A stretch of 64,000 bases of DNA from a phage. The translations under genes were made by a program, and so were the position numbers. Positions 2,146-58,204 of this stretch are shown here, piece by piece. Numbering within the stretch: position 1 is the stretch's first letter; each line of letters starts with the position of its first letter. Below the pieces are notes generated by a model that saw only the letters and a list, made by a program, of their open reading frames with translations, was not told the DNA's origin and searched no databases. The stretch lies in the sequence record OZ346201.1. One strand, 5' to 3'.

Positions 2146-3122
2146 TGTCTGAAAAAACGATTACTATTAAAGAGAAGGGGATTGCCCTGTGCCATAAGGC
2201 GCAAGGCTATAGCGCTAACAACAGACCTGTATCTCTTTTGATGAAGAGTGATCTTAAGCCTGAGCAGTTAACAGACGATATTGTTAAGGCACTTCGCCAA
2301 GTTACTGTGGAGCTTAGCTTTGAAGAATACCTGCGTCGTTTCTTCGATATGTGGTATGATGATGCTAAAGCACTTGCACACATGCTTGGTTTTGAGATTG
2401 AAGAGGAGGCTTGGGCTAAAGAGCATCCTGATTGGGAATGGGCGCAAGCTGACGCAGAGTCTTGTATTGCATGGCTGGAAGAGCGTTGTGATAACGTGAC
2501 CATTCATAAGGCTGCAAAAGAAGGCAAGCAGCTTAGTGTGGTAGATCAGTACAGCCTGTTAAAAACACAACAGATTTTTGAACAAGTAACCGCTGATCTC
2601 TTCGATAAAGAAGGGAACCTGATCAAGGCGGTACAGGAACCTGCTGAGGTGGATAAAACTACCGAGGTGGATGATGTTGCAAAATCCGCAAATACCGAGG
2701 AGAATCCGGTGGACGTAACCAAAACTAAAGAGTATCTGGATCTGCTGAAGCAAGTAGAAGAGCTGAAAGCAACCCAGAGTAAAGCTGAAGAAATCATCAA
2801 GGCCCAGGTTGAAGTTGAAAAAGCTAAAATGCTGACTAAGGCTCAAGCTTTAAGCTTTGTTGGTGAAGAAGATCACGCAACCCTGGTTGACTTCATGCTG
2901 GAAAAAGCTAACGAACCTATCGTAGCTATGCTGGAGAAAGCTCAAGCAAAAATTGAAGAGCTGGAAGCAGAGGTGCATAAAACTAAAGAAGAGTTTGCCA
3001 CCACTGAACATGGTAATGATGGCGAACCTGTTGTGGATGATATTGCGAAATCCGCAGAAGAAATTCTTGCTGAAAACGTTGCAAAAGCACTTGCTCGTGC
3101 ACGTGCAGAATCTAACAAATAA
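2145..3122 (+). CDS. scaffolding protein (putative)
   Basis: 325 aa, acidic, Ala/Glu/Lys-rich with long predicted coiled-coil segments (e.g. EKAQAKIEELEAEVHKTKEE); start overlaps the upstream stop (TAATG); lies between portal and capsid. Confidence 0.5.
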   Translation: MSEKTITIKEKGIALCHKAQGYSANNRPVSLLMKSDLKPEQLTDDIVKALRQVTVELSFEEYLRRFFDMWYDDAKALAHMLGFEIEEEAWAKEHPDWEWAQADAESCIAWLEERCDNVTIHKAAKEGKQLSVVDQYSLLKTQQIFEQVTADLFDKEGNLIKAVQEPAEVDKTTEVDDVAKSANTEENPVDVTKTKEYLDLLKQVEELKATQSKAEEIIKAQVEVEKAKMLTKAQALSFVGEEDHATLVDFMLEKANEPIVAMLEKAQAKIEELEAEVHKTKEEFATTEHGNDGEPVVDDIAKSAEEILAENVAKALARARAESNK

Positions 3123-3142
3123 GACATTAACGGGGGAAATAA

Positions 3143-3532: not shown

Positions 3533-3580
3533 GTCCTAAATTGTTCGGGAAAATATTTAAGTTTTACTTTGGAGAAATAA

Positions 3581-20026: not shown

Positions 20027-23000
20027 ATGGCTGATATTAAAGTTGTCAGAATTGAATCTCTTCCTGCCACTACCGCAGTGACAGAGGATGATTACCTGGT
20101 TGTTCAACAACCAGACCTGACCCGTCGTGTAAAAATTGGCGATGTTGTCCATGTGGATGGGACTGTTTCTCATGTAATCTCCTTTAAGGAAGGTGGTAAG
20201 TTAAACGGCCCAATGGATTTTGCCTATTTCGAAGAGGAAGATCTCTACCTGCGTTGGAAAGGCGAATTTCCACACACTGTTCCTGCACTATCTTCACCGT
20301 ACTCAGATGGTGGGATTACTGACGCTGCATGGATGGTATATACTGACCCGTCCCTAAGGGAGGAGCTGGAATCTACCATTGGCGCATCTATGATCATGAC
20401 AGCCGAAGGGCAGTCTGTCCAGGATGTAATGGATGTTACTGTTCAGACAGCTAACGATGCTAAAGCACTTGCACAGCGTGTAGATTTTGGTACGGTGCAC
20501 ACTGTAGGTGATGTTATTCACCTTGATAACTTTGTGGGTCCTGCAGTTATTGAAGAGGGAAGAACCACCAACTACCCTTCTGTAGCAGCTGGTGAAAAAT
20601 TTCTGAACGGTGTGGTATCTCGTCGTGATACTACAACTGTTGATGGTATTTTCCGTGGCGCTACCTCCGGAGCCATGTATACCATTGCAGTAACCAACGG
20701 TGTAGCAACAACAAAAAGAATAGCACTTCGTGATGAATTTAAACGCCTAGAGGCAAACAACCCAACAAGAACAGTTATCCGTGCTGGAGATGATTTAAAC
20801 ACGGCAGGGTACTTGCAGCTTGATGCAACAGGCCGTTGGGGTATGTGGAACCAACAAACAGCCTCGTGGCAACCTCTTGCTATAGAGCAAGGCGGTACAG
20901 GGGCCAGAGATGCCGCTGGAGTGCGTATCAATATTGGGGCTTTCTATAAGCAACGTGCAGCCCTTGAGCCCAATTTCAATATCAATAACTTGACTGGTAA
21001 TCAGGATGGTGTATACTACCAGCCGAGGACTGCTTATGCAACTGAGGCAAATGGTTACCCTGCAGGTTCTGGTGCTGGTCACTTGATTGTCTGGCAGAAC
21101 AATGCTAACGGAGGTACAGGTTGTCGTCAGGAATACTATCCATTCTCTAACGTAGATGTTTGGTATTTGAGAACCTATCAGGCCAACACAAACCAGTGGA
21201 CTGCATGGCAGCCGATGGTCAGACCTCGTAACGATGATACCTTCAGATCTCATATTGGTCTCGGGCCTAGAAATACCCCTACCTTCGGGCACATTTACCT
21301 GTCTCAAAGTTCTGCTGATGTTAAGTCAGCCTCGGGTATTGTTAACGGGGACAAATACAGCGCTGACGGTGTCCTTGAGCATGGATATAGGATCTATTCT
21401 GAGGTAAGAAACGACAATAAGGCTTGGCTGACAATCCACCTGCACAAAGGTGCAAAAGGATCTGAAACTCATAAATATTTAGGTTTCCGCGAAGACGGCG
21501 TATTAGACTGCCCTAAATATATGCAGGTTGGGGATCTTACTGGTCAGCTGACAAACTGGGGACTTGGAGAATGGATTCGTAGTTCAGGAGCAGAAAGAGG
21601 CTTCTGGGGGTCCAAGAAAGCCGCCAAGATGGTTATCTGGGATGGTGGGATGGACGAATCCGGTAACGGCACTCTGGAATGGGGTGTTTATAACAACCGG
21701 AAGGCCAAGTGGGAACCTCTACCTCAAGCCGCAGGTGGCACTGGGGCTACAACTTTAGCAGATGCTCAGAATCTGTTCAAAGTTCCTGTAGCGGCAGGCG
21801 TAAAAGACTTCTTAACACTGCCAAGAACTGCAGGAATGGAAGATGGGAAATACTACCCAATCATCGTTAGAACAGATCCGTATTACGCCCTTTCGACAGG
21901 TACAGATATTACTATAGTCACCAGGTCTTCATCTGGAAATGACCCTATGAACTGTGCCACCCTGCAGTGTCATTATAGAACTGGTGGCTGGACGGACAGG
22001 GGAGATTCTTTCCAAGGGGTTATTAATTTCTACCAAAACGAGAGAGCAATTCTTGGGTGTGTGGCTCCAACCAGAGGGAAGCAGGCGTATGTTGCATTCT
22101 ATGTTGAGGCGCGTGCTTTCCCTGTCAGTGTCTACGCAAGCAGAAACGTTCTTGAGGTATTTACCAGAGAAAATGACTGGCAGGTAGGGGATGTGACTAA
22201 CAACCAAAATGGTGTCAAGTTTTGCGCCCCTCTTGCGTCAGATAATTTAAGTCTTGCAATTAAAGGTGATGATGTAACAAACACCAGACCTCTTGCTGAG
22301 TTCAAGGGAACATCAGGGTTCTATACGGGTGGTGCTACAGGCTGGCACTATGTAGGCACACCTGACAGAATGGTTCTGATGAGTAAGACAGAGATGCCTC
22401 CTGTAGAGATGTGGTACAATGGTCTTAACTACATTTGCCCAGGTAGCCAAACCACTAGAAAAGCACTGTTCTCTAACGCAGGGTTCCAAGCTGCATCGGA
22501 AGGAACAGAGGATCTGATCAATAATACCTTTACCTCTAAATGCGGTAATGGTGCAAGACTGCAGGGACAGGCAGAGTTCAGATCCACCCCAGAGGCTGGT
22601 CAAGTTATTGTTCGTGATATTGTAGGCACAGCCCATAGATTCTACAACTTCAACAAAGATGGCACTTTCTCAGCTCCGGGCGGTTTTGTATGCCACACGG
22701 GTGCAGACTGGAACAACCAGTTTGGGCCTAACAACCCGTCAAAAATAATAGCTGGTAATGTTAACGGCCCACAAGATACCATGGTTGTAGGCGGGTTATC
22801 TGTAGGATTCTCGGGAAACTACGCTTTCCAGATTGCTGGCAGACAAAGTAACTTATACACCAGGTCTATAGAAGGTGGTAATCACCATCCCTGGAATAAG
22901 GCCATGCAACACAGGGGTCAAGGTCTTGGTTCTTCAGACCTTAACACCTATCACGGATTGTGGGAAGGTATTTACCATCAGCCTGCAAATAATGATGCAA

Positions 23001-46165: not shown

Positions 46166-46641
46166 GGCTCTTTCTCCGGTTCAGGATCTGGGTAATCTTC
46201 AATAATAAAGGGCCATCCGTTCCGCTTAGCCTCAGACTTGTACTCAATCTCCTTCATTGCAAACTCTAACTGATTTTTAGCCGGAATACATGCCGGAGAA
46301 TCATCAACCCAGATATCTGGGTAGATATCAAACTGCGCCAGGTAGGATGCCTTCTGAACACCGCCAGTATAAAACACACCAACATCGAGCTCCTTGCGCC
46401 AATACTCAATGTCCACATTGTCTTGAGTAATGAATCGGAAAGTCACAAGGTATACTGTCCACCCCTCCTTCTTCAGGTCCCTGATCAGGCGGGAGAAGAT
46501 GAACGGACTCGCATTGAACGTTCCATCAAAGTCAATGGCAATGATGTGTGTGCCGTGGCGAGTCTCATATGGATTGCTTGTGGTAAGATTGCTGTAGTTA
46601 AAAGGAACTTCTTCCCCGCAGTAGCTGTAGTCCATATTCAC
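46162..46641 (-). CDS. putative HAD-superfamily phosphatase
   Basis: 159 aa; N-terminal IIAIDFDGTF fits HAD motif I (hhhDxDGT). Confidence 0.35.
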   Translation of the reverse strand: MNMDYSYCGEEVPFNYSNLTTSNPYETRHGTHIIAIDFDGTFNASPFIFSRLIRDLKKEGWTVYLVTFRFITQDNVDIEYWRKELDVGVFYTGGVQKASYLAQFDIYPDIWVDDSPACIPAKNQLEFAMKEIEYKSEAKRNGWPFIIEDYPDPEPEKEP

Positions 46642-48481: not shown

Positions 48482-48745
48482 TCAGAAACCCTCTAAAAAG
48501 CTCTTGTAGAAAACAATCTCAGTATCCACACCAGTCACAATCTTGTCGTTCCTGATTTCATCGGTAAGATAGGTGTCAAAACGCAGAACCTGTGTGGTGT
48601 TGTCACACATCCACTCAGCTGTGACCATTGCGAAAATCTTAGCATCTTCATTATCTGGTGTGAATGTTACCACCTCACCGCACTTAAACTTTTCGATAGG
48701 CTGAGTGTTAGCTTTCGGTTCTGCGATAGTGATTTTTGTGGTCAT
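48482..48745 (-). CDS. small protein, tandem paralogue 3 of 4
   Basis: 87 aa; shares G(T/E)VV.F..D...D......V...FD....LP....VTE.D..I.ILGE pattern; start overlaps upstream stop (TAATG). Confidence 0.5.
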   Translation of the reverse strand: MTTKITIAEPKANTQPIEKFKCGEVVTFTPDNEDAKIFAMVTAEWMCDNTTQVLRFDTYLTDEIRNDKIVTGVDTEIVFYKSFLEGF

Positions 48746-49008
48746 TATTCTCCTCCTTCTTTTGAATAGCTTGTCTCTCCAAGGATGGTAATTTTGGTGT
48801 CAAGCTCTGTAACTTTCATGTTTGGCGGCAGATCGTACAACTCATTATTTTCTAAATCGAACCCCCACACACAATGTTCTCCTGTTTTGACAATCATAAC
48901 TATGTTTTGAATGCCGTCTCCGTCGCAACTTACCACGGTCCCACACGGAAAACTGTCTGCACGCTTTTTGTTCTTCACCTTAGAATTGAATACAATGCTG
49001 GTAGCCAT
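48745..49008 (-). CDS. small protein, tandem paralogue 2 of 4
   Basis: 87 aa, same family; TAATG overlap with the upstream gene. Confidence 0.5.
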   Translation of the reverse strand: MATSIVFNSKVKNKKRADSFPCGTVVSCDGDGIQNIVMIVKTGEHCVWGFDLENNELYDLPPNMKVTELDTKITILGETSYSKEGGE

Positions 49009-49271
49009 TATTGTTCCTCCACCATAACTTCGCCAAGAATTTCTATGCAGGCATCCATTTCTGTAACAACCAAACTGTGAGGTAGTTCTACAAACACCTT
49101 TCTGAACAGGTCAAATACCCCAACATATATGTTTGCAGGATGTGATTTTACAACAAGTGCTGTATTCACATCCCCAAGTTCATCAACAAACATCACCACA
49201 GTGCCCGGAGCTACTGAGGACAGATACTTCTTAGTTTTACGGTTTGATGCAAATTTTAACTCTGTTGCCAT
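49008..49271 (-). CDS. small protein, tandem paralogue 1 of 4
   Basis: 87 aa, RBS GAGAGGAGG; same family. Confidence 0.5.
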   Translation of the reverse strand: MATELKFASNRKTKKYLSSVAPGTVVMFVDELGDVNTALVVKSHPANIYVGVFDLFRKVFVELPHSLVVTEMDACIEILGEVMVEEQ

Positions 49272-50756: not shown

Positions 50757-50775
50757 AGAAGGGGCCATTGGCCCC
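50757..50775 (-). promoter_or_regulatory. intergenic hairpin (attenuator or terminator candidate)
   Basis: AGGGGCC-AAT-GGCCCCT between the stop of the 50781..51575 gene and the VWA gene start. Confidence 0.3.
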
Positions 50776-50780
50776 TGTCA

Positions 50781-51575
50781 TTATTTAACGTGTTTGAAAA
50801 TACCTGCCAACTCGGTCATTGTCATGCGGGTGGTCTTCATAAGATCTGTCATAGCTTTCTCCATAATTGGAGATACTACCATAAAGTTTCCTTTAGTGAA
50901 ACCTTTATTCCAGTCGGTCACCAACAGGGGTTTAAGTCCAGCTCCAAGACGTTCACCAGTTAAAGCACAGCATTTGCGAATATACGAACTCTTAAATTGG
51001 CTGAACGACAGATCAACTTTCATACCTACATCGTAGAACGTTTGACAATAGAAAGTGTAAGCTTTGGCAATCTCAACATCATCAGGTAGTGCAGGAACCT
51101 CTTCTGTAAGCTCCTCTTCGACCTCCTGAGTCTCTTTTTCCTCTTCATGCACCTGTTGCGTCATTTCTTCAATCTCTTCTGTGATAGGCTCGTTTACAAT
51201 GTCGGAAATGTGCTTCTTGGGTGCACGATAAGTAACTTTAGACATCGGTAGCATATCTTCCTCCTCTTCTTCGTCAAAGAGTGCTAGTTTATCCTCTTCC
51301 GTTCCATATTGCAAGATGAAATCTTCAAAAGTATAATCACCTTTCAATTTCTCCATACGCTCTTCGCTCAGGTGGAGCATCATCTGCTGGACAATTTTTC
51401 GATCAGTTTCGTCTTTAATCAAGACTGCAGTCTTTTTATCTACCAGACAGTCCTTTAGAGAGTTGCATCTCAATCCCACCACACAACAGTTATCAACCGC
51501 ATAAGGACCTTCATCATCTATCCGCTCCAGAGATGGGTAGAAAGGATTCCCCAGCCCGTTTTCATCTGTGTGCAT
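50781..51575 (-). CDS. hypothetical protein with Cys-rich N-terminal domain and acidic C-terminal region
   Basis: 264 aa; first 23 codons lie in the left palindrome arm; internal LPMSKVTYRA identical at 27 nt to the start of the 52791 gene; preceded internally by GAGGAGG. Confidence 0.45.
   Translation of the reverse strand: MHTDENGLGNPFYPSLERIDDEGPYAVDNCCVVGLRCNSLKDCLVDKKTAVLIKDETDRKIVQQMMLHLSEERMEKLKGDYTFEDFILQYGTEEDKLALFDEEEEEDMLPMSKVTYRAPKKHISDIVNEPITEEIEEMTQQVHEEEKETQEVEEELTEEVPALPDDVEIAKAYTFYCQTFYDVGMKVDLSFSQFKSSYIRKCCALTGERLGAGLKPLLVTDWNKGFTKGNFMVVSPIMEKAMTDLMKTTRMTMTELAGIFKHVK
51222..51248 (-). repeat. 27-bp inverted-repeat copy 1 (CCGATGTCTAAAGTTACTTATCGTGCA)
   Basis: Exact 27-nt identity, in inverse orientation, with 52788..52814. 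Confidence 0.6.
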
Positions 51576-51760
51576 GTCAAAAGGTATAAGGGTATAGTCG
51601 CATACTCCATCTCCTAAAAGTTTTTTACCAAATATTTGGTAAAAAACTTTTAGGAGATGGAGTATGCGACTATACCCTTATACCTTTTGACATGCACACA
51701 GATGAAAACGGGCTGGGGAATCCTTTCTACCCATCTCTGGAGCGGATAGATGATGAAGGT
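51507..51760. repeat. 254-bp perfect palindrome at the divergent junction
   Basis: Arms about 127 bp, centre ...TTACCAAATATTTGGTAA... at 51633/51634; the ORF-track N-terminus of the leftward gene equals the mini-ORF I translated from the right arm (MHTDENGLGNPFYPSLERIDDEG). Confidence 0.7.
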
Positions 51761-52502
51761 TATTGAGCGTAGATTGGTATCTGGGTCTGATAAGTGGACA
51801 TATTTAGATAATGAAGGACACACCTATTCCAATGGGTATGTCGATATAAAAGTAGAATACGCGGTATCATACCGCCGGAGCGGTTCTGTAACTTTCAACT
51901 TCTCTGGAGGTTTTCGATCTCTGGCTACCTCACCTTTTGTTTCCTCAGAGGAGAAGTATGAGCTGCCATTTCTTTGGATGATGGCTAACGCGACAGGAAA
52001 AACCCCCGTTAGCATCCGAGTAAAATACAACTACAACGGATCTAGTAAGATCTATGCCGAAAGTGTCTCAGCAAGTTTTTATTTTGTGATGGGGGATGGA
52101 ATCCTCAAACATATAAAGATGTGCGATATGCATGATGTTATAAATGAAGTGACTGATAAGAATGTTCTAGTGAAAGACCTCAACAATTTTTATACACCCG
52201 GAGACTATTACGTCAGCCGTCCACTGTGCATCTTTAATGCCGCACACCCTCTAGGTGAGTATTTGATCGCCAATAGCGATATTGCCAATAACCGCTTCGA
52301 GGTAGCAAGAGTTCAGAATGAGGTATTGACATCTTGCAAGAGCGGTGATAAGTTTACCGAAGAAGAGATGGGTGTTTTAGAAATGATGGGATATAAGTGT
52401 AGCCTTTGGGTAGATGAGGTGTTCAATGATTGCATCTATGGACAGGATATTTACCCATTAAAGAAGTATACTGATTCCAGTTTAATTTACGCGGAGATTT
52501 GA
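51750..52502 (+). CDS. hypothetical protein
   Basis: 250 aa; ATG lies in the last 11 nt of the right palindrome arm, RBS GGAGCGG. Confidence 0.45.
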   Translation: MMKVIERRLVSGSDKWTYLDNEGHTYSNGYVDIKVEYAVSYRRSGSVTFNFSGGFRSLATSPFVSSEEKYELPFLWMMANATGKTPVSIRVKYNYNGSSKIYAESVSASFYFVMGDGILKHIKMCDMHDVINEVTDKNVLVKDLNNFYTPGDYYVSRPLCIFNAAHPLGEYLIANSDIANNRFEVARVQNEVLTSCKSGDKFTEEEMGVLEMMGYKCSLWVDEVFNDCIYGQDIYPLKKYTDSSLIYAEI

Positions 52503-52787: not shown

Positions 52788-52814
52788 CCGATGTCTAAAG
52801 TTACTTATCGTGCA
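52788..52814 (+). repeat. 27-bp inverted-repeat copy 2 (CCGATGTCTAAAGTTACTTATCGTGCA)
   Basis: Exact match to the reverse complement of 51222..51248; contains the ATG and first 8 codons of the 52791 gene. Confidence 0.6.
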
Positions 52815-53147
52815 GCTATTTACTGCAATGAACACCCAATCAATAATGATGGTCACTGCCTTTTTAAAGAAAATCAATTGGGCTGTATTGTCCTCCCTGA
52901 TGAAGGGGAAGGTTATCTGATTGCGTTGACAGGGTTTGAACCTGAAGCTCTGGAAGCCAATCTTGACTACCTGGTAGAGGAGGGTGCTGCAGACCTGGTT
53001 GCCAATGGCCTCTCCATAAGCCTTGACGAAGTGGAGCGCTTCATGGGCAATTACCGTGTAGTGCGTGAGTTTACTATCGAGGTGGAAACTCCCGAGTGGG
53101 GTAGCCATGAAACTAATGCCGAAGAAAAAGAAGAGGAGGTAGAATAA
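52791..53147 (+). CDS. small acidic protein
   Basis: Track ORF starts at a TTG at 52770; ATG 52791 after AAGGAG is preferred. Strongly acidic (C-terminal EEKEEEVE). Confidence 0.45.
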   Translation: MSKVTYRAAIYCNEHPINNDGHCLFKENQLGCIVLPDEGEGYLIALTGFEPEALEANLDYLVEEGAADLVANGLSISLDEVERFMGNYRVVREFTIEVETPEWGSHETNAEEKEEEVE

Positions 53148-53831: not shown

Positions 53832-54101
53832 ATGTTATACCAGCAATATGAACTTCGTGCAGAAAAAGAGTTAAATTTTGACAAAGATATTCACAGATAT
53901 TATTATGGGAAAGTTAGAGGGCAAGCAAGAAAGTGTACTCCAACACTCTTTTATGCCAGCAGACGACTAGCGCCAGAAGAGGCAACAGCAGAAAGGGTTG
54001 CGTACAACTGGAGAGTCACGTATGATATTGACAGATTCGATGTGATATCTGTTTTGGAAAACTTTGAAAACACTTACACACAAGTAGAGGACTTTTACTA
54101 A
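53832..54101 (+). CDS. hypothetical protein
   Basis: 89 aa, RBS AAGGAG. Confidence 0.4.
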   Translation: MLYQQYELRAEKELNFDKDIHRYYYGKVRGQARKCTPTLFYASRRLAPEEATAERVAYNWRVTYDIDRFDVISVLENFENTYTQVEDFY

Positions 54102-55724: not shown

Positions 55725-56225
55725 GTGAAAATTAAGATCTTTGCTATTATTTTGAGCGCACTTTTATCGCTGCCTGTTGTTGCAGCACCAAAACAAAAAG
55801 TATATCATACTTGCAAGCCATCAGATACTAAGGAAAACATTCTGGCATGCAATATCTACAGGGAAGCTAGAGGAGATGGCACGATGGGTATGCTGGCATC
55901 TGGGTTTGCCACACTAAACAGGAAATCCCACCCTAAATACCCAGACACTATAAGAAAGATTGTCTACCAACCTAACCAGTTTTCGTGGACAAACCACGGC
56001 AAAACTTTTAAGGTGACAGAAAAAGATTCATGGGATCACGCTAAAAGTCTTGCAAAGATGCTTCTAAAGGTCTATAATAACAACCATGTTGCATACATGG
56101 CTATGGACATAACAGGTGGAGCAACACACTACCATACAACCAAAGTACGACCGAAATGGGCAAAAAAGATGCAGAGGACAGCTCAATTCGGGAGCCATAT
56201 CTACTACAAGGAGCGCAATAAATGA
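55725..56225 (+). CDS. secreted cell-wall hydrolase (SleB/CwlJ-like), endolysin candidate
   Basis: 166 aa, GTG start after GGAG; N-terminal signal peptide MKIKIFAIILSALLSLPVVAAP; NIYREARGDG...YQPNQFSW region resembles the Hydrolase_2 family. Confidence 0.5.
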   Translation: MKIKIFAIILSALLSLPVVAAPKQKVYHTCKPSDTKENILACNIYREARGDGTMGMLASGFATLNRKSHPKYPDTIRKIVYQPNQFSWTNHGKTFKVTEKDSWDHAKSLAKMLLKVYNNNHVAYMAMDITGGATHYHTTKVRPKWAKKMQRTAQFGSHIYYKERNK

Positions 56226-58204
56226 TCGTAAACAGTAATGAAACTAAAGCGGTACTAACCGGGAATATGGAGGTCACCAGGGGCTCAATTTCTCTGAACA
56301 AAGAGACTTTTGGGCTAATCATTAAAGGGATTTACGAAGATAAGGTGCTGGCAAGCTGCCGTGAACCAATCTTCAATGCCGTGGACTCCCATGTTGAGTC
56401 TGGACGGGGTGATGTACCGATCATTATTCACTCTCCTACAGACCTTGAACCATACTTCTTTGTGCAGGACGTTGGATTGGGCATGTCAGAAGAGATGGTC
56501 CGCAACACTTTCATGAACCTCGGGGAGTCAACCAAGCGCAACAGCAACGCTCTGGTAGGTAATAAAGGTGTTGGTTCAAAGGCTCCGTTCAGCATGGTGG
56601 ACACTTTCGATGTTATCAGTGTGCACAATGGTGTTGAAAGCACATATCTATTGTTCTTGGATCAGGGTATCCCAAACGTTACCAAGATCCGTGAGCGGAA
56701 GACTGAAGAGCACAACGGGGTAAAAGTTCAGTTCCATGTTAAGAAAGAGCATGTCCTGAAATATCGCACTGCTATTGCATCGTGCTTACGCTATGCGAAG
56801 TTTCCGTTCATCGTCACCGATCCTATGACCAGTAAGATGTTAGAAGGTGACAAGGTTGAGGCACAGTATCATTACGAGAAGGATGGCTGGAAAATGACCA
56901 TCCTGAAAGGTTATACCAGTTCTGATGAGAGCCGTGTTGTGATGGGTCACCAACCTTACCGCTCCAAGTTCCTGGAGACATTGACCGATTACCCTGCAAT
57001 CTGCGTGGAAATTCCTATTGGGGATTGCAATATTAACCCTGGGCGTGAATGGACCATAGAGGGCCATGACGACGGTGGATTCCAGGATCGCCTGGAGGCC
57101 TTTGTCAAAGAAGGTATACGTCTTCGCGGGGCAGAAGTTGTTGCAGAACTGGAGACGGCAAAAACCTCCGCAGAAGCACGTGAAATGATGAAGAATAGTG
57201 GAGTGTTCGGACACATCTTCGGCAAAAACTTTATGTGGAACCGTTGGGAAGAAACAGGGCTTGGCGACTTAGGCGATTGTGAAATTTTCGCTGGCGGCTT
57301 AAATAAAGGCCGCATAGGCTATGCTCGTTACGGAAAGTCGGAGTTCTTACGAGGTGTATACCTTGTATTTAACGACGGAGACGGCAAATATAACCGGAAT
57401 AAGTGTAACTACTTAAGCGAGATCACCGGACGCAACGTTTTCTATTGCCGGAACACGGATCTGGTGAAAGAGTTTAAAGAGGCGGCACACCATCCGTTCT
57501 TTGCAGATACGGTCAAATTGTTATCGGAGCTTCCACGCCGACCTGCGAAGAAAGGTGAAACCAAAACTCGATACGAGCCAGGCTACTGGGTTAAGAAGCT
57601 TAGAGAGGATGGCTACTTCCATCGTGAGCGCCTCACGAAGGCAGAGTTCAAGAAGATTAAGCATTGCATCCCTTATGAGGGGGATATCCAACGGGGAAGC
57701 TGCTGGCTGGGCCAGATGAGTAACATCTACCAGCAAAATTATGACCGTGTGCGTGCGGCACTCCAGATTCCTGAAGGGGAAGACCTGTACCTGGTATCAG
57801 AATCCCGTCTGCTTTGGACTGATCCTGATTGCCAGTATGTTACAGAGAAAAATGTGGAACATTTGTTGAAAGAGGACGCCTGGAAATTCTTACTGACTCG
57901 CGCAGCAAATGAAACTTCATATGACAACCTGTATAGACAATTAGGGAAAATTATCCCCATGCAGGATTTTGGAAATTATCGGCCACATTTCCACAAGTGG
58001 GAAGGTAACACCGCGTGGAAGCACAGTGAGCTAAATCATCGTGCCAAAATCTTAATCGCCAACCGGGTTAAGTGCGGGAAGGCCTATATTGCAAGATTGG
58101 AAAAGAAATATCCACTTTTGAAGCATGTGGGCTTGAAATATTGGGACACTTCTGCTATGATTGAATACCGTGAACTGATCGATACAAAGAATAACATCAA
58201 ATAA
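56222..58204 (+). CDS. rIIA: rIIA-like protein (GHKL-type ATPase fold)
   Basis: 660 aa; N-terminal region matches T4 rIIA from memory (GVGSKAPFSMVDTFDVISVH versus T4 [20 protein letters not shown]); immediately upstream of rIIB. Confidence 0.65.
   Translation: MIVNSNETKAVLTGNMEVTRGSISLNKETFGLIIKGIYEDKVLASCREPIFNAVDSHVESGRGDVPIIIHSPTDLEPYFFVQDVGLGMSEEMVRNTFMNLGESTKRNSNALVGNKGVGSKAPFSMVDTFDVISVHNGVESTYLLFLDQGIPNVTKIRERKTEEHNGVKVQFHVKKEHVLKYRTAIASCLRYAKFPFIVTDPMTSKMLEGDKVEAQYHYEKDGWKMTILKGYTSSDESRVVMGHQPYRSKFLETLTDYPAICVEIPIGDCNINPGREWTIEGHDDGGFQDRLEAFVKEGIRLRGAEVVAELETAKTSAEAREMMKNSGVFGHIFGKNFMWNRWEETGLGDLGDCEIFAGGLNKGRIGYARYGKSEFLRGVYLVFNDGDGKYNRNKCNYLSEITGRNVFYCRNTDLVKEFKEAAHHPFFADTVKLLSELPRRPAKKGETKTRYEPGYWVKKLREDGYFHRERLTKAEFKKIKHCIPYEGDIQRGSCWLGQMSNIYQQNYDRVRAALQIPEGEDLYLVSESRLLWTDPDCQYVTEKNVEHLLKEDAWKFLLTRAANETSYDNLYRQLGKIIPMQDFGNYRPHFHKWEGNTAWKHSELNHRAKILIANRVKCGKAYIARLEKKYPLLKHVGLKYWDTSAMIEYRELIDTKNNIK

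Follow-up and report, generated by a model that had tools for sequence, protein, structure and literature searches.

A private 254-bp perfect palindrome in an rV5-like phage, probably the scar of a fold-back template switch

The window analysed here, the whole 64-kb stretch of phage DNA (64,000 nucleotides), contains a 254-bp perfect palindrome, which is probably a recent, non-functional rearrangement scar that arose in vivo and is private to one phage lineage. The structure of the palindrome, both of its junctions, the deletion that accompanies it and the privacy of the event are directly evident from base-level comparison with related phages. The locus thus adds one more case to a known class of rearrangements, unless it is an artefact mimicking that class.

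Structure and genomic setting of the palindrome

Reverse-complement comparison of positions 51507-51760 confirmed the 254-bp perfect palindrome with exact arms of approximately 127 bp that had been reported in the initial annotation. The two 127-nt arms are separated by zero spacer and contain zero mismatches, the centre lies between positions 51633 and 51634 within CCAAAT/ATTTGG, and the symmetry first breaks at arm position 128 (Table 1). The single-stranded DNA fold has a free energy of -163.9 kcal/mol compared with -30.2 +/- 3.6 kcal/mol in shuffled sequences (z = -36.8), and a chance origin of the palindrome is ruled out (4^-127). Apart from the palindrome, the 64-kb window contains just two exact inverted repeats of 16 nt or longer, namely one 27-bp pair and one 16-nt self-palindrome, a self-reverse-complement sequence at positions 46307-46322. 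The palindrome forms the right-hand edge of a leftward gene island of ~7 kb in a genome that is otherwise oriented rightward; the leftward island ends here, in agreement with the previously described switch between leftward and rightward gene blocks. GC skew changes sign at this divergent gene boundary, where it merely tracks the coding strand.

Table 1. Features of the palindrome locus. Coordinates refer to the window unless marked L001 (parental locus of phage PMBT16).
Feature	Position	Strand	Remarks
Left arm, original copy	51507..51633	-	Internal segment of the Srd-like anti-sigma gene; colinear with relatives
Right arm, inverted duplicate of left arm	51634..51760	+	Replaces 415 bp of parental DNA
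Centre junction, self-complementary TA	51633..51634		Creates an SspI site (AATATT) that is missing in relatives
Outer junction, 10-nt microhomology TGATGAAGGT	51751..51760		End of the inverted copy equals parental DNA 415 bp past the break
Left member of pre-existing inverted 10-mer pair, ACCTTCATCA	51507..51516		Set the arm length
Native leftward promoter TTGACA-17-TACGAT	L001 3291-3319	-	Deleted from the window
Native rightward promoter TTGACT-17-TATAGT	L001 3333-3361	+	Deleted from the window
Truncated Srd-like anti-sigma gene, 264 aa	50781..51575	-	Remnant with 5' loss; ancestral gene 325 aa
Truncated conserved gene, ancestral 299 aa	51750..52502	+	PHROG 12338; first 50 codons lost
24-aa mini-ORF, MHTDENGLGNPFYPSLERIDDEG + Y	51692..51766	+	Mirror of the first 23 leftward codons; overlaps the ATG at 51750

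Phage identity and sampled relatives

By sequence comparison, the window is assigned to an rV5-like myovirus of Escherichia coli, genus Vequintavirus. It is colinear and 96-99.6% identical with more than 110 GenBank phage genomes, among which the closest relatives vary by segment (PMBT16, A51.2, MaxBurger and RudolfGeigy). The 25 kb surrounding the palindrome are colinear with RudolfGeigy, and outside the palindrome just four small indels distinguish the window from MaxBurger over 25 kb. The phage is predicted to use its own DNA polymerase, primase-helicase, ligase and nucleases, and an EndoVII-type junction nuclease is annotated in relatives.

Among the database records, 16-18 unannotated 'Campylobacter phage' entries with C. 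jejuni as the host (for example MG065635, MG065654, MG065655, MG065658, MG065661, MG065666 and MG065682) are 95-99% identical to E. coli Vequintaviruses over the window. Judging from this identity, the C. jejuni host label looks doubtful and may reflect contamination or mislabelling. Furthermore, several metagenome and Logan assemblies of close relatives (L019, L020 and L021) show two ORFs in place of the single rIIA homologue of the window (56222-58204, 660 aa), which represents either frameshift errors or natural disruption of rIIA.

The ancestral locus in related phages

PMBT16 (L001) served as the reference parental locus for the base-level comparison, complemented by an alignment of nine relatives that includes PMBT16. 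With a 3501-bp locus query, each relative matches in two pieces that span 3799 bp. The window is colinear with L001 up to window position 51634 (L001 3135, 99.7% identity), window 51634-51760 is the reverse complement of L001 3008-3134 (100% identity), and the window from 51751 on equals L001 from 3550 on. Accordingly, 415 bp of parental DNA (L001 3135-3549), which occupy positions 20673-21087 in PMBT16, have given way to an inverted 127-bp copy of the neighbouring sequence, and the locus is 298 bp shorter as a result. The uninterrupted parental sequence is present in 32 of 32 relative loci and the 415 bp also in 118 records; in the nine-relative alignment this block is nearly invariant, even where the genomes are only 95% identical overall. 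A search of the 64-kb window for the deleted 415 bp showed that they have not been relocated elsewhere within it. Lost with this block were the divergent pair of early promoters and the 5' end of each flanking gene. A recent inverted duplication of a gene start, one of the candidate explanations initially put forward, is therefore correct with regard to the inverted duplication, but comparison with relatives revealed that an internal segment was copied rather than the true gene start and that a 415-bp deletion accompanies it.

The rearranged locus appears to be restricted to this phage. A 271-bp probe across the palindrome was covered by 0 of 118 phage records, and the palindrome centre was found in 0 of 32 relative loci from GenBank, ENA metagenomes and Logan assemblies. 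An exact 40-mer scan for the centre in IMG/VR, JGI metagenomes and GTDB genomes, an exact 36-mer scan for the outer junction in IMG/VR and JGI metagenomes, and a megablast search of the palindrome against complete E. coli genomes each returned zero matches. Absence from IMG/VR weighs little, because in the positive control only one relative with the parental sequence was found there; the meaningful comparison set comprises the 118 GenBank records and the Logan/ENA contigs. Literature searches found no reports of rV5 deletion mutants at this locus and none specific to a 254-bp palindrome. The two arms differ at zero positions while relatives vary by single-base changes inside the same 127 bp, and the event must thus be younger than any sampled divergence.

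Flanking genes

The gene to the left of the palindrome encodes, in its intact form, a 325-aa protein matching PHROG 3118/4592/1400, which comprise Srd-like anti-sigma or sigma-70-decoy proteins. A Pfam search of both flanking proteins gave zero matches, and the Srd-like assignment derives from the PHROGs. Annotations of Murica, Gotham, FFH2 and the BASEL phages place the ancestral start at L001 3259. In the window, the first 42 codons of this gene are deleted and the first surviving in-frame start is the ancestral Met 62, which has lost the promoter and has no Shine-Dalgarno sequence upstream. The start codon previously placed in the left arm is indeed an ATG (position 51575), but represents this internal methionine of the ancestral 325-aa gene; the arms are thus ordinary coding sequence and not a regulatory element. 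The accompanying description of the ORFs holds, as the left arm contains 23 codons and the mini-ORF repeats the same 23 residues and overlaps the ATG of the rightward gene. This mini-ORF is a mirror-image by-product of the duplication and is not independently supported as a gene.

The start of the Srd-like gene is annotated variously in identical sequence of relatives, yielding products of 346, 325, 311 or 264 aa, which are named anti-sigma factor, anti-termination protein, HNH endonuclease or hypothetical protein. The 346-aa version, which overlaps the leftward promoter, is probably over-extended. In phage Alma, a different start call results in an identical 264-aa product (exact protein match) at an intact locus. 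Exact protein look-ups with the 250-aa truncated product, the 493-aa ORF, the 1878-aa fibre and rIIA returned zero identical entries.

The rightward gene belongs to a PHROG class of unknown function and is sometimes labelled 'fucosyltransferase'. Its remnant is supplied by luck with an in-frame GGAG-N7-ATGATG at the junction. As the deletion removed the promoters together with the 5' ends of both genes, the phage would be a natural double knock-out.

Promoters and functional readings

The two deleted sigma70-type promoters are arranged back-to-back, and both are annotated in Gotham. Their -35 boxes form a 23-bp inverted repeat, GTCAACATCAAAAACGTGTTGAC (L001 3315-3337), which is exact in 30 fetched loci. 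On a small scale, this repeat constitutes a naturally occurring symmetric divergent promoter, and it may also act as an operator for a regulator. A search for promoter-like sites in window 51338-51840 found zero, and the palindrome neither contains nor creates any. Strong sigma70-like promoters are located 2.2 kb rightward (53878-53906, + strand) and 3.7 kb leftward (47925-47897, - strand), each with 11/12 matches. Based on these positions, the silenced part would consist of ~2.2 kb (rightward) and ~3.7 kb (leftward) of small accessory early genes. Since the distal promoter-like sites could serve the distal genes, viability of the phage in the laboratory without the promoter pair seems plausible.

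It is very improbable that the palindrome functions as a cis element, be it in replication initiation (origin), in symmetric divergent transcription (promoter) or as a cruciform regulatory site. The position exactly at the divergent gene boundary with its change in GC skew sign would suit such an element, and relatives do have a small symmetric promoter element at this locus. However, the palindrome is absent from the same place in all relatives (0 of 118 records, 0 of 32 loci), where the shared conserved 415 bp stand instead, and this argues against the replication origin that had been considered. The arms consist of ordinary Srd-like coding sequence, with GC skew following the coding strand. 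A symmetric divergent promoter, likewise an early candidate, disagrees with the lack of outward -35/-10 hexamer pairs inside the arms (search range 51338-51840) and with the deletion of the native pair.

Genome ends

A telomere-resolution site, a concatemer junction or a head-to-head join of true genome ends is hardly credible at this locus. Perfect palindromes do have the look of protelomerase targets and head-to-head end joins, but after a terminal join, colinearity with relatives would not pick up again 415 bp further on. Furthermore, Vequintaviruses have direct terminal repeats of 458-459 bp and a fixed packaging start (PMC7471380, PMC6563267). In Gotham, identical terminal repeat copies are annotated at 1-459 and 136567-137025, ~37.5 kb from the palindrome locus, and a search for this repeat in the window and at the locus gave zero matches. 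The terminal repeats of the relatives thus indicate that the palindrome is not a physical DNA end, which disfavours the telomere or concatemer junction initially proposed. No protelomerase is encoded according to the annotation of the close relatives RudolfGeigy (41.8-137.4 kb) and MaxBurger (3.1-28.1 kb), a check by annotation only that covers ~120 of 137 kb. An assembly artefact at true genome ends had also been suggested. The Gotham terminal repeats led us to reject its genome-end part, as the true ends are ~37.5 kb away in relatives, while the artefact part is plausible given that 254 equals 2k for k = 127.

Junctions and proposed origin

At the centre, the parental sequence ...ACCAAAT/AGGAGG reads ...ACCAAAT/ATTTGG in the window. 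The parental base past the break (A) is identical to the first base of the inverted copy, corresponding to 1-2 nt of microhomology, and because this A complements the T before the break, the switch sits in a self-complementary TA. At the outer junction, parent 3550-3559 is the reverse complement of parent 3008-3017, and the palindrome stops exactly where the TGATGAAGGT match stops; the match reaches 14/15 nt if one gap is allowed. When the hypothetical inverted copy was scanned against 2 kb of downstream parental sequence, no match of 10 nt or more preceded TGATGAAGGT along the copy and none was longer within its first 315 nt; the matching site is also located nearby. The inverted 10-mer pair is found at unchanged spacing in ~29 of 32 relative loci, making the substrate of the event ancestral.

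We propose that these features originated from a fold-back with two template switches. A nascent strand copying the locus rightward would have halted just past parental position 3135, where its 3' TA could have paired with the TA of the complementary strand (sister or lagging-strand partner), and 127 nt would then have been copied backwards to form the inverted arm. The new 3' end, TGATGAAGGT, would have annealed to its 10-nt counterpart on the original template, located 415 bp further ahead, followed by the resumption of normal synthesis. The net outcome would be a 415-bp deletion, a 127-bp inverted duplicate and a spacer-less 254-bp palindrome. Alternatively, a double-strand break followed by fold-back repair synthesis could have led to an identical product. 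The mutant was presumably fixed via a plaque-purification bottleneck or selection.

A two-step template switch would explain why the arms meet without a spacer and have exactly this length, why DNA was deleted and why each junction lies on microhomology. As expected for a fold-back, the new DNA is an exact inverted copy of the sequence adjacent to the breakpoint, both junctions lie on ancestral microhomology (TA and the 10-nt TGATGAAGGT), and the ancestral DNA between the switch points, which is seen in relatives, is lost. We infer that the event occurred in vivo, that the two switches took place in the order given and that the resulting phage was viable. The near-invariance of the 415 bp together with the exact 23-bp repeat in 30 loci suggests that their loss is costly, which counts against a real event. 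In addition, a 460-bp perfect palindrome is lethal in the chromosome of SbcCD+ E. coli (PMC4245961). By analogy with this lethality, and considering the EndoVII-type nuclease, maintenance of the 254-bp palindrome might be difficult, and its stable carriage would be mildly remarkable.

Library or assembly artefact

There is a serious, if less than even, chance that the palindrome is an artefact of library preparation or assembly and that the phage truly carries the ordinary 415-bp promoter region. Fold-back chimeras could have formed through strand-displacement amplification, through head-to-head ligation or when single strands that had snapped back underwent end repair. In a de Bruijn graph with k = 127, such chimeras could have produced an edge complementary to itself, which was then joined downstream on a short chance overlap; in a variant of this explanation, an in-vitro double template switch dominated the reads at the locus. 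The largest default k-mer size of SPAdes is 127, and its scaffolder joins path ends on overlaps of ~6-10 nt. The arm length equals this k (254 = 2 x 127). On the parental sequence, a simulated k = 127 fold-back edge forms a 252-nt palindrome with 126-nt arms, the last 9 nt of which, TGATGAAGG, equal parent 3550-3558, and a join at this position reproduces the window exactly. The simulated join has arms of 127 nt because the next base extends the symmetry by chance, so that the observed length agrees with the k or k-1 characteristic of a de Bruijn artefact. With k = 55, 77 or 99, the tail of the simulated edge matches the parent over at most 6 nt. A real event would require a microhomology located k nt from the centre by coincidence, with a chance of roughly 1 in 100-300. 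The near-invariance of the missing 415 bp in all relatives also fits an artefact. Exact palindromes are assembled through by SPAdes, and unitigs can be unsafe at imperfect coverage (PMC9528984, Rahman and Medvedev; indirectly relevant). Moreover, in >85% of chimeras from multiple displacement amplification (MDA) the sequence is inverted and the DNA in between is deleted, with complementary stretches of 2-21 nt serving for priming (PMC1855051). A literature search for a documented '2k palindrome' artefact of SPAdes found none specific.

On the other hand, such an artefact requires two graph dead ends ~400 bp apart in an otherwise clean phage assembly, as well as a chance suffix match of at least 9 nt exactly at the start of the next contig (~1e-4 to 3e-3). 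The window is clean and colinear elsewhere, and the assembly is thus not poor in general. A rare chimera would normally lose to the parental path with full coverage, and the central TA and outer 10-mer resemble polymerase priming rather than ligation. The junctions are just 127 nt apart, so single real reads could span both.

Comparison with known systems and significance

Fold-back or strand-switch inverted duplications have been described in the model of origin-dependent inverted-repeat amplification (ODIRA, PMC4689423). The palindrome shares with template-switch inverted duplications the adjacent inverted copy, the loss of intervening DNA and junctions on 2-10 nt of complementarity, one of which is determined by a short inverted repeat that was already present. 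It differs from them by its location in a lytic phage genome, its tiny 127-nt arm, the spacer-less perfect symmetry and the lack of amplification. Quasipalindrome-type strand switching, tandem-inversion-duplication junctions in Salmonella and FoSTeS/MMBIR-type events belong to the same family.

This kind of junction is also made in vitro by phi29 polymerase (Lasken and Stockwell 2007, PMC1855051). As in phi29 MDA chimeras, the sequence at the locus is inverted, the DNA in between is missing, and priming would have relied on complementarity of 2-21 nt within one molecule. However, such chimeras are rare, arise per molecule and have one junction each, whereas here two junctions 127 nt apart are present in the consensus. 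SbcCD cleaves long palindromes that have been engineered into the E. coli chromosome and into lambda (PMC4245961, PMC3315005). Similar to these, the palindrome is perfect, spacer-less, a few hundred bp long and replicated in E. coli, and hairpin extrusion is expected; in contrast to them it is spontaneous (if real), comprises 254 instead of 460 bp, and is copied by a phage replisome in many copies per cell. With protelomerase sites (telRL of N15, PY54 and similar) it shares perfect dyad symmetry only; no protelomerase is annotated in the ~120 of 137 kb covered in relatives, the site lacks conservation among them, and the direct terminal repeats of the genus lie at a different position.

If real, the locus would document, at base-pair resolution, a two-step template switch that took place naturally in a large lytic phage. 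The phage would moreover provide a ready double knock-out of a conserved early promoter pair and two early genes, including the Srd-like anti-sigma gene, and a test case for the tolerance of a phage replisome to a long perfect palindrome in SbcCD+ E. coli. It is unlikely that the phage stably keeps the 254-bp palindrome in SbcCD-proficient E. coli despite the EndoVII-type nuclease and without the promoter pair, the Srd-like factor or the 299-aa protein. Were this the case, the replisome or an accessory protein, for example an SbcCD inhibitor, would suppress hairpin extrusion or cleavage, and the universally conserved early genes would be dispensable or their loss selected, for example as an escape from a defence system sensing one of them. 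If the palindrome is an artefact, an exact-2k palindrome (254 bp, k = 127) combined with a missing conserved block would constitute a signature of hidden misassemblies in deposited phage genomes. In either case, annotation of the palindrome as an origin, telomere or regulatory element should be avoided, and both flanking ORFs should be flagged as truncated.

Other repeats and early genes near the locus

The window also contains a perfect 27-bp inverted repeat, CCGATGTCTAAAGTTACTTATCGTGCA, at 51222-51248 (- strand) and 52789-52815 (+ strand), corresponding to L001 2723-2749 and 4587-4613, which is conserved in relatives. One copy lies in frame within the Srd-like gene and encodes MSKVTYRA, and the other comprises the 3 nt before the ATG and the first eight codons (MSKVTYRA) of a 118-aa gene (52791-53147). 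We considered and rejected the repeat as a sign of paralogy between the Srd-like and 118-aa proteins, as these eight residues are all that they have in common. The repeat could serve as an inversion substrate for the promoter segment.

Further to the left, three abutting tandem ORFs of 87 aa each are located at 48482-49271 (- strand), corresponding to three 264-bp genes in relatives; they probably represent a tandem triplication of a small early gene. A GC-rich dyad, AGGGGCCATTGGCCCCT (window 50760-50776), is located in the gap of 12 bp or more between the Srd-like gene and a DUF2201/VWA 'metallopeptidase' gene and is annotated as a terminator in Murica. A terminator at this position would leave the Srd-like gene monocistronic and would call into question what drives the genes downstream of it.
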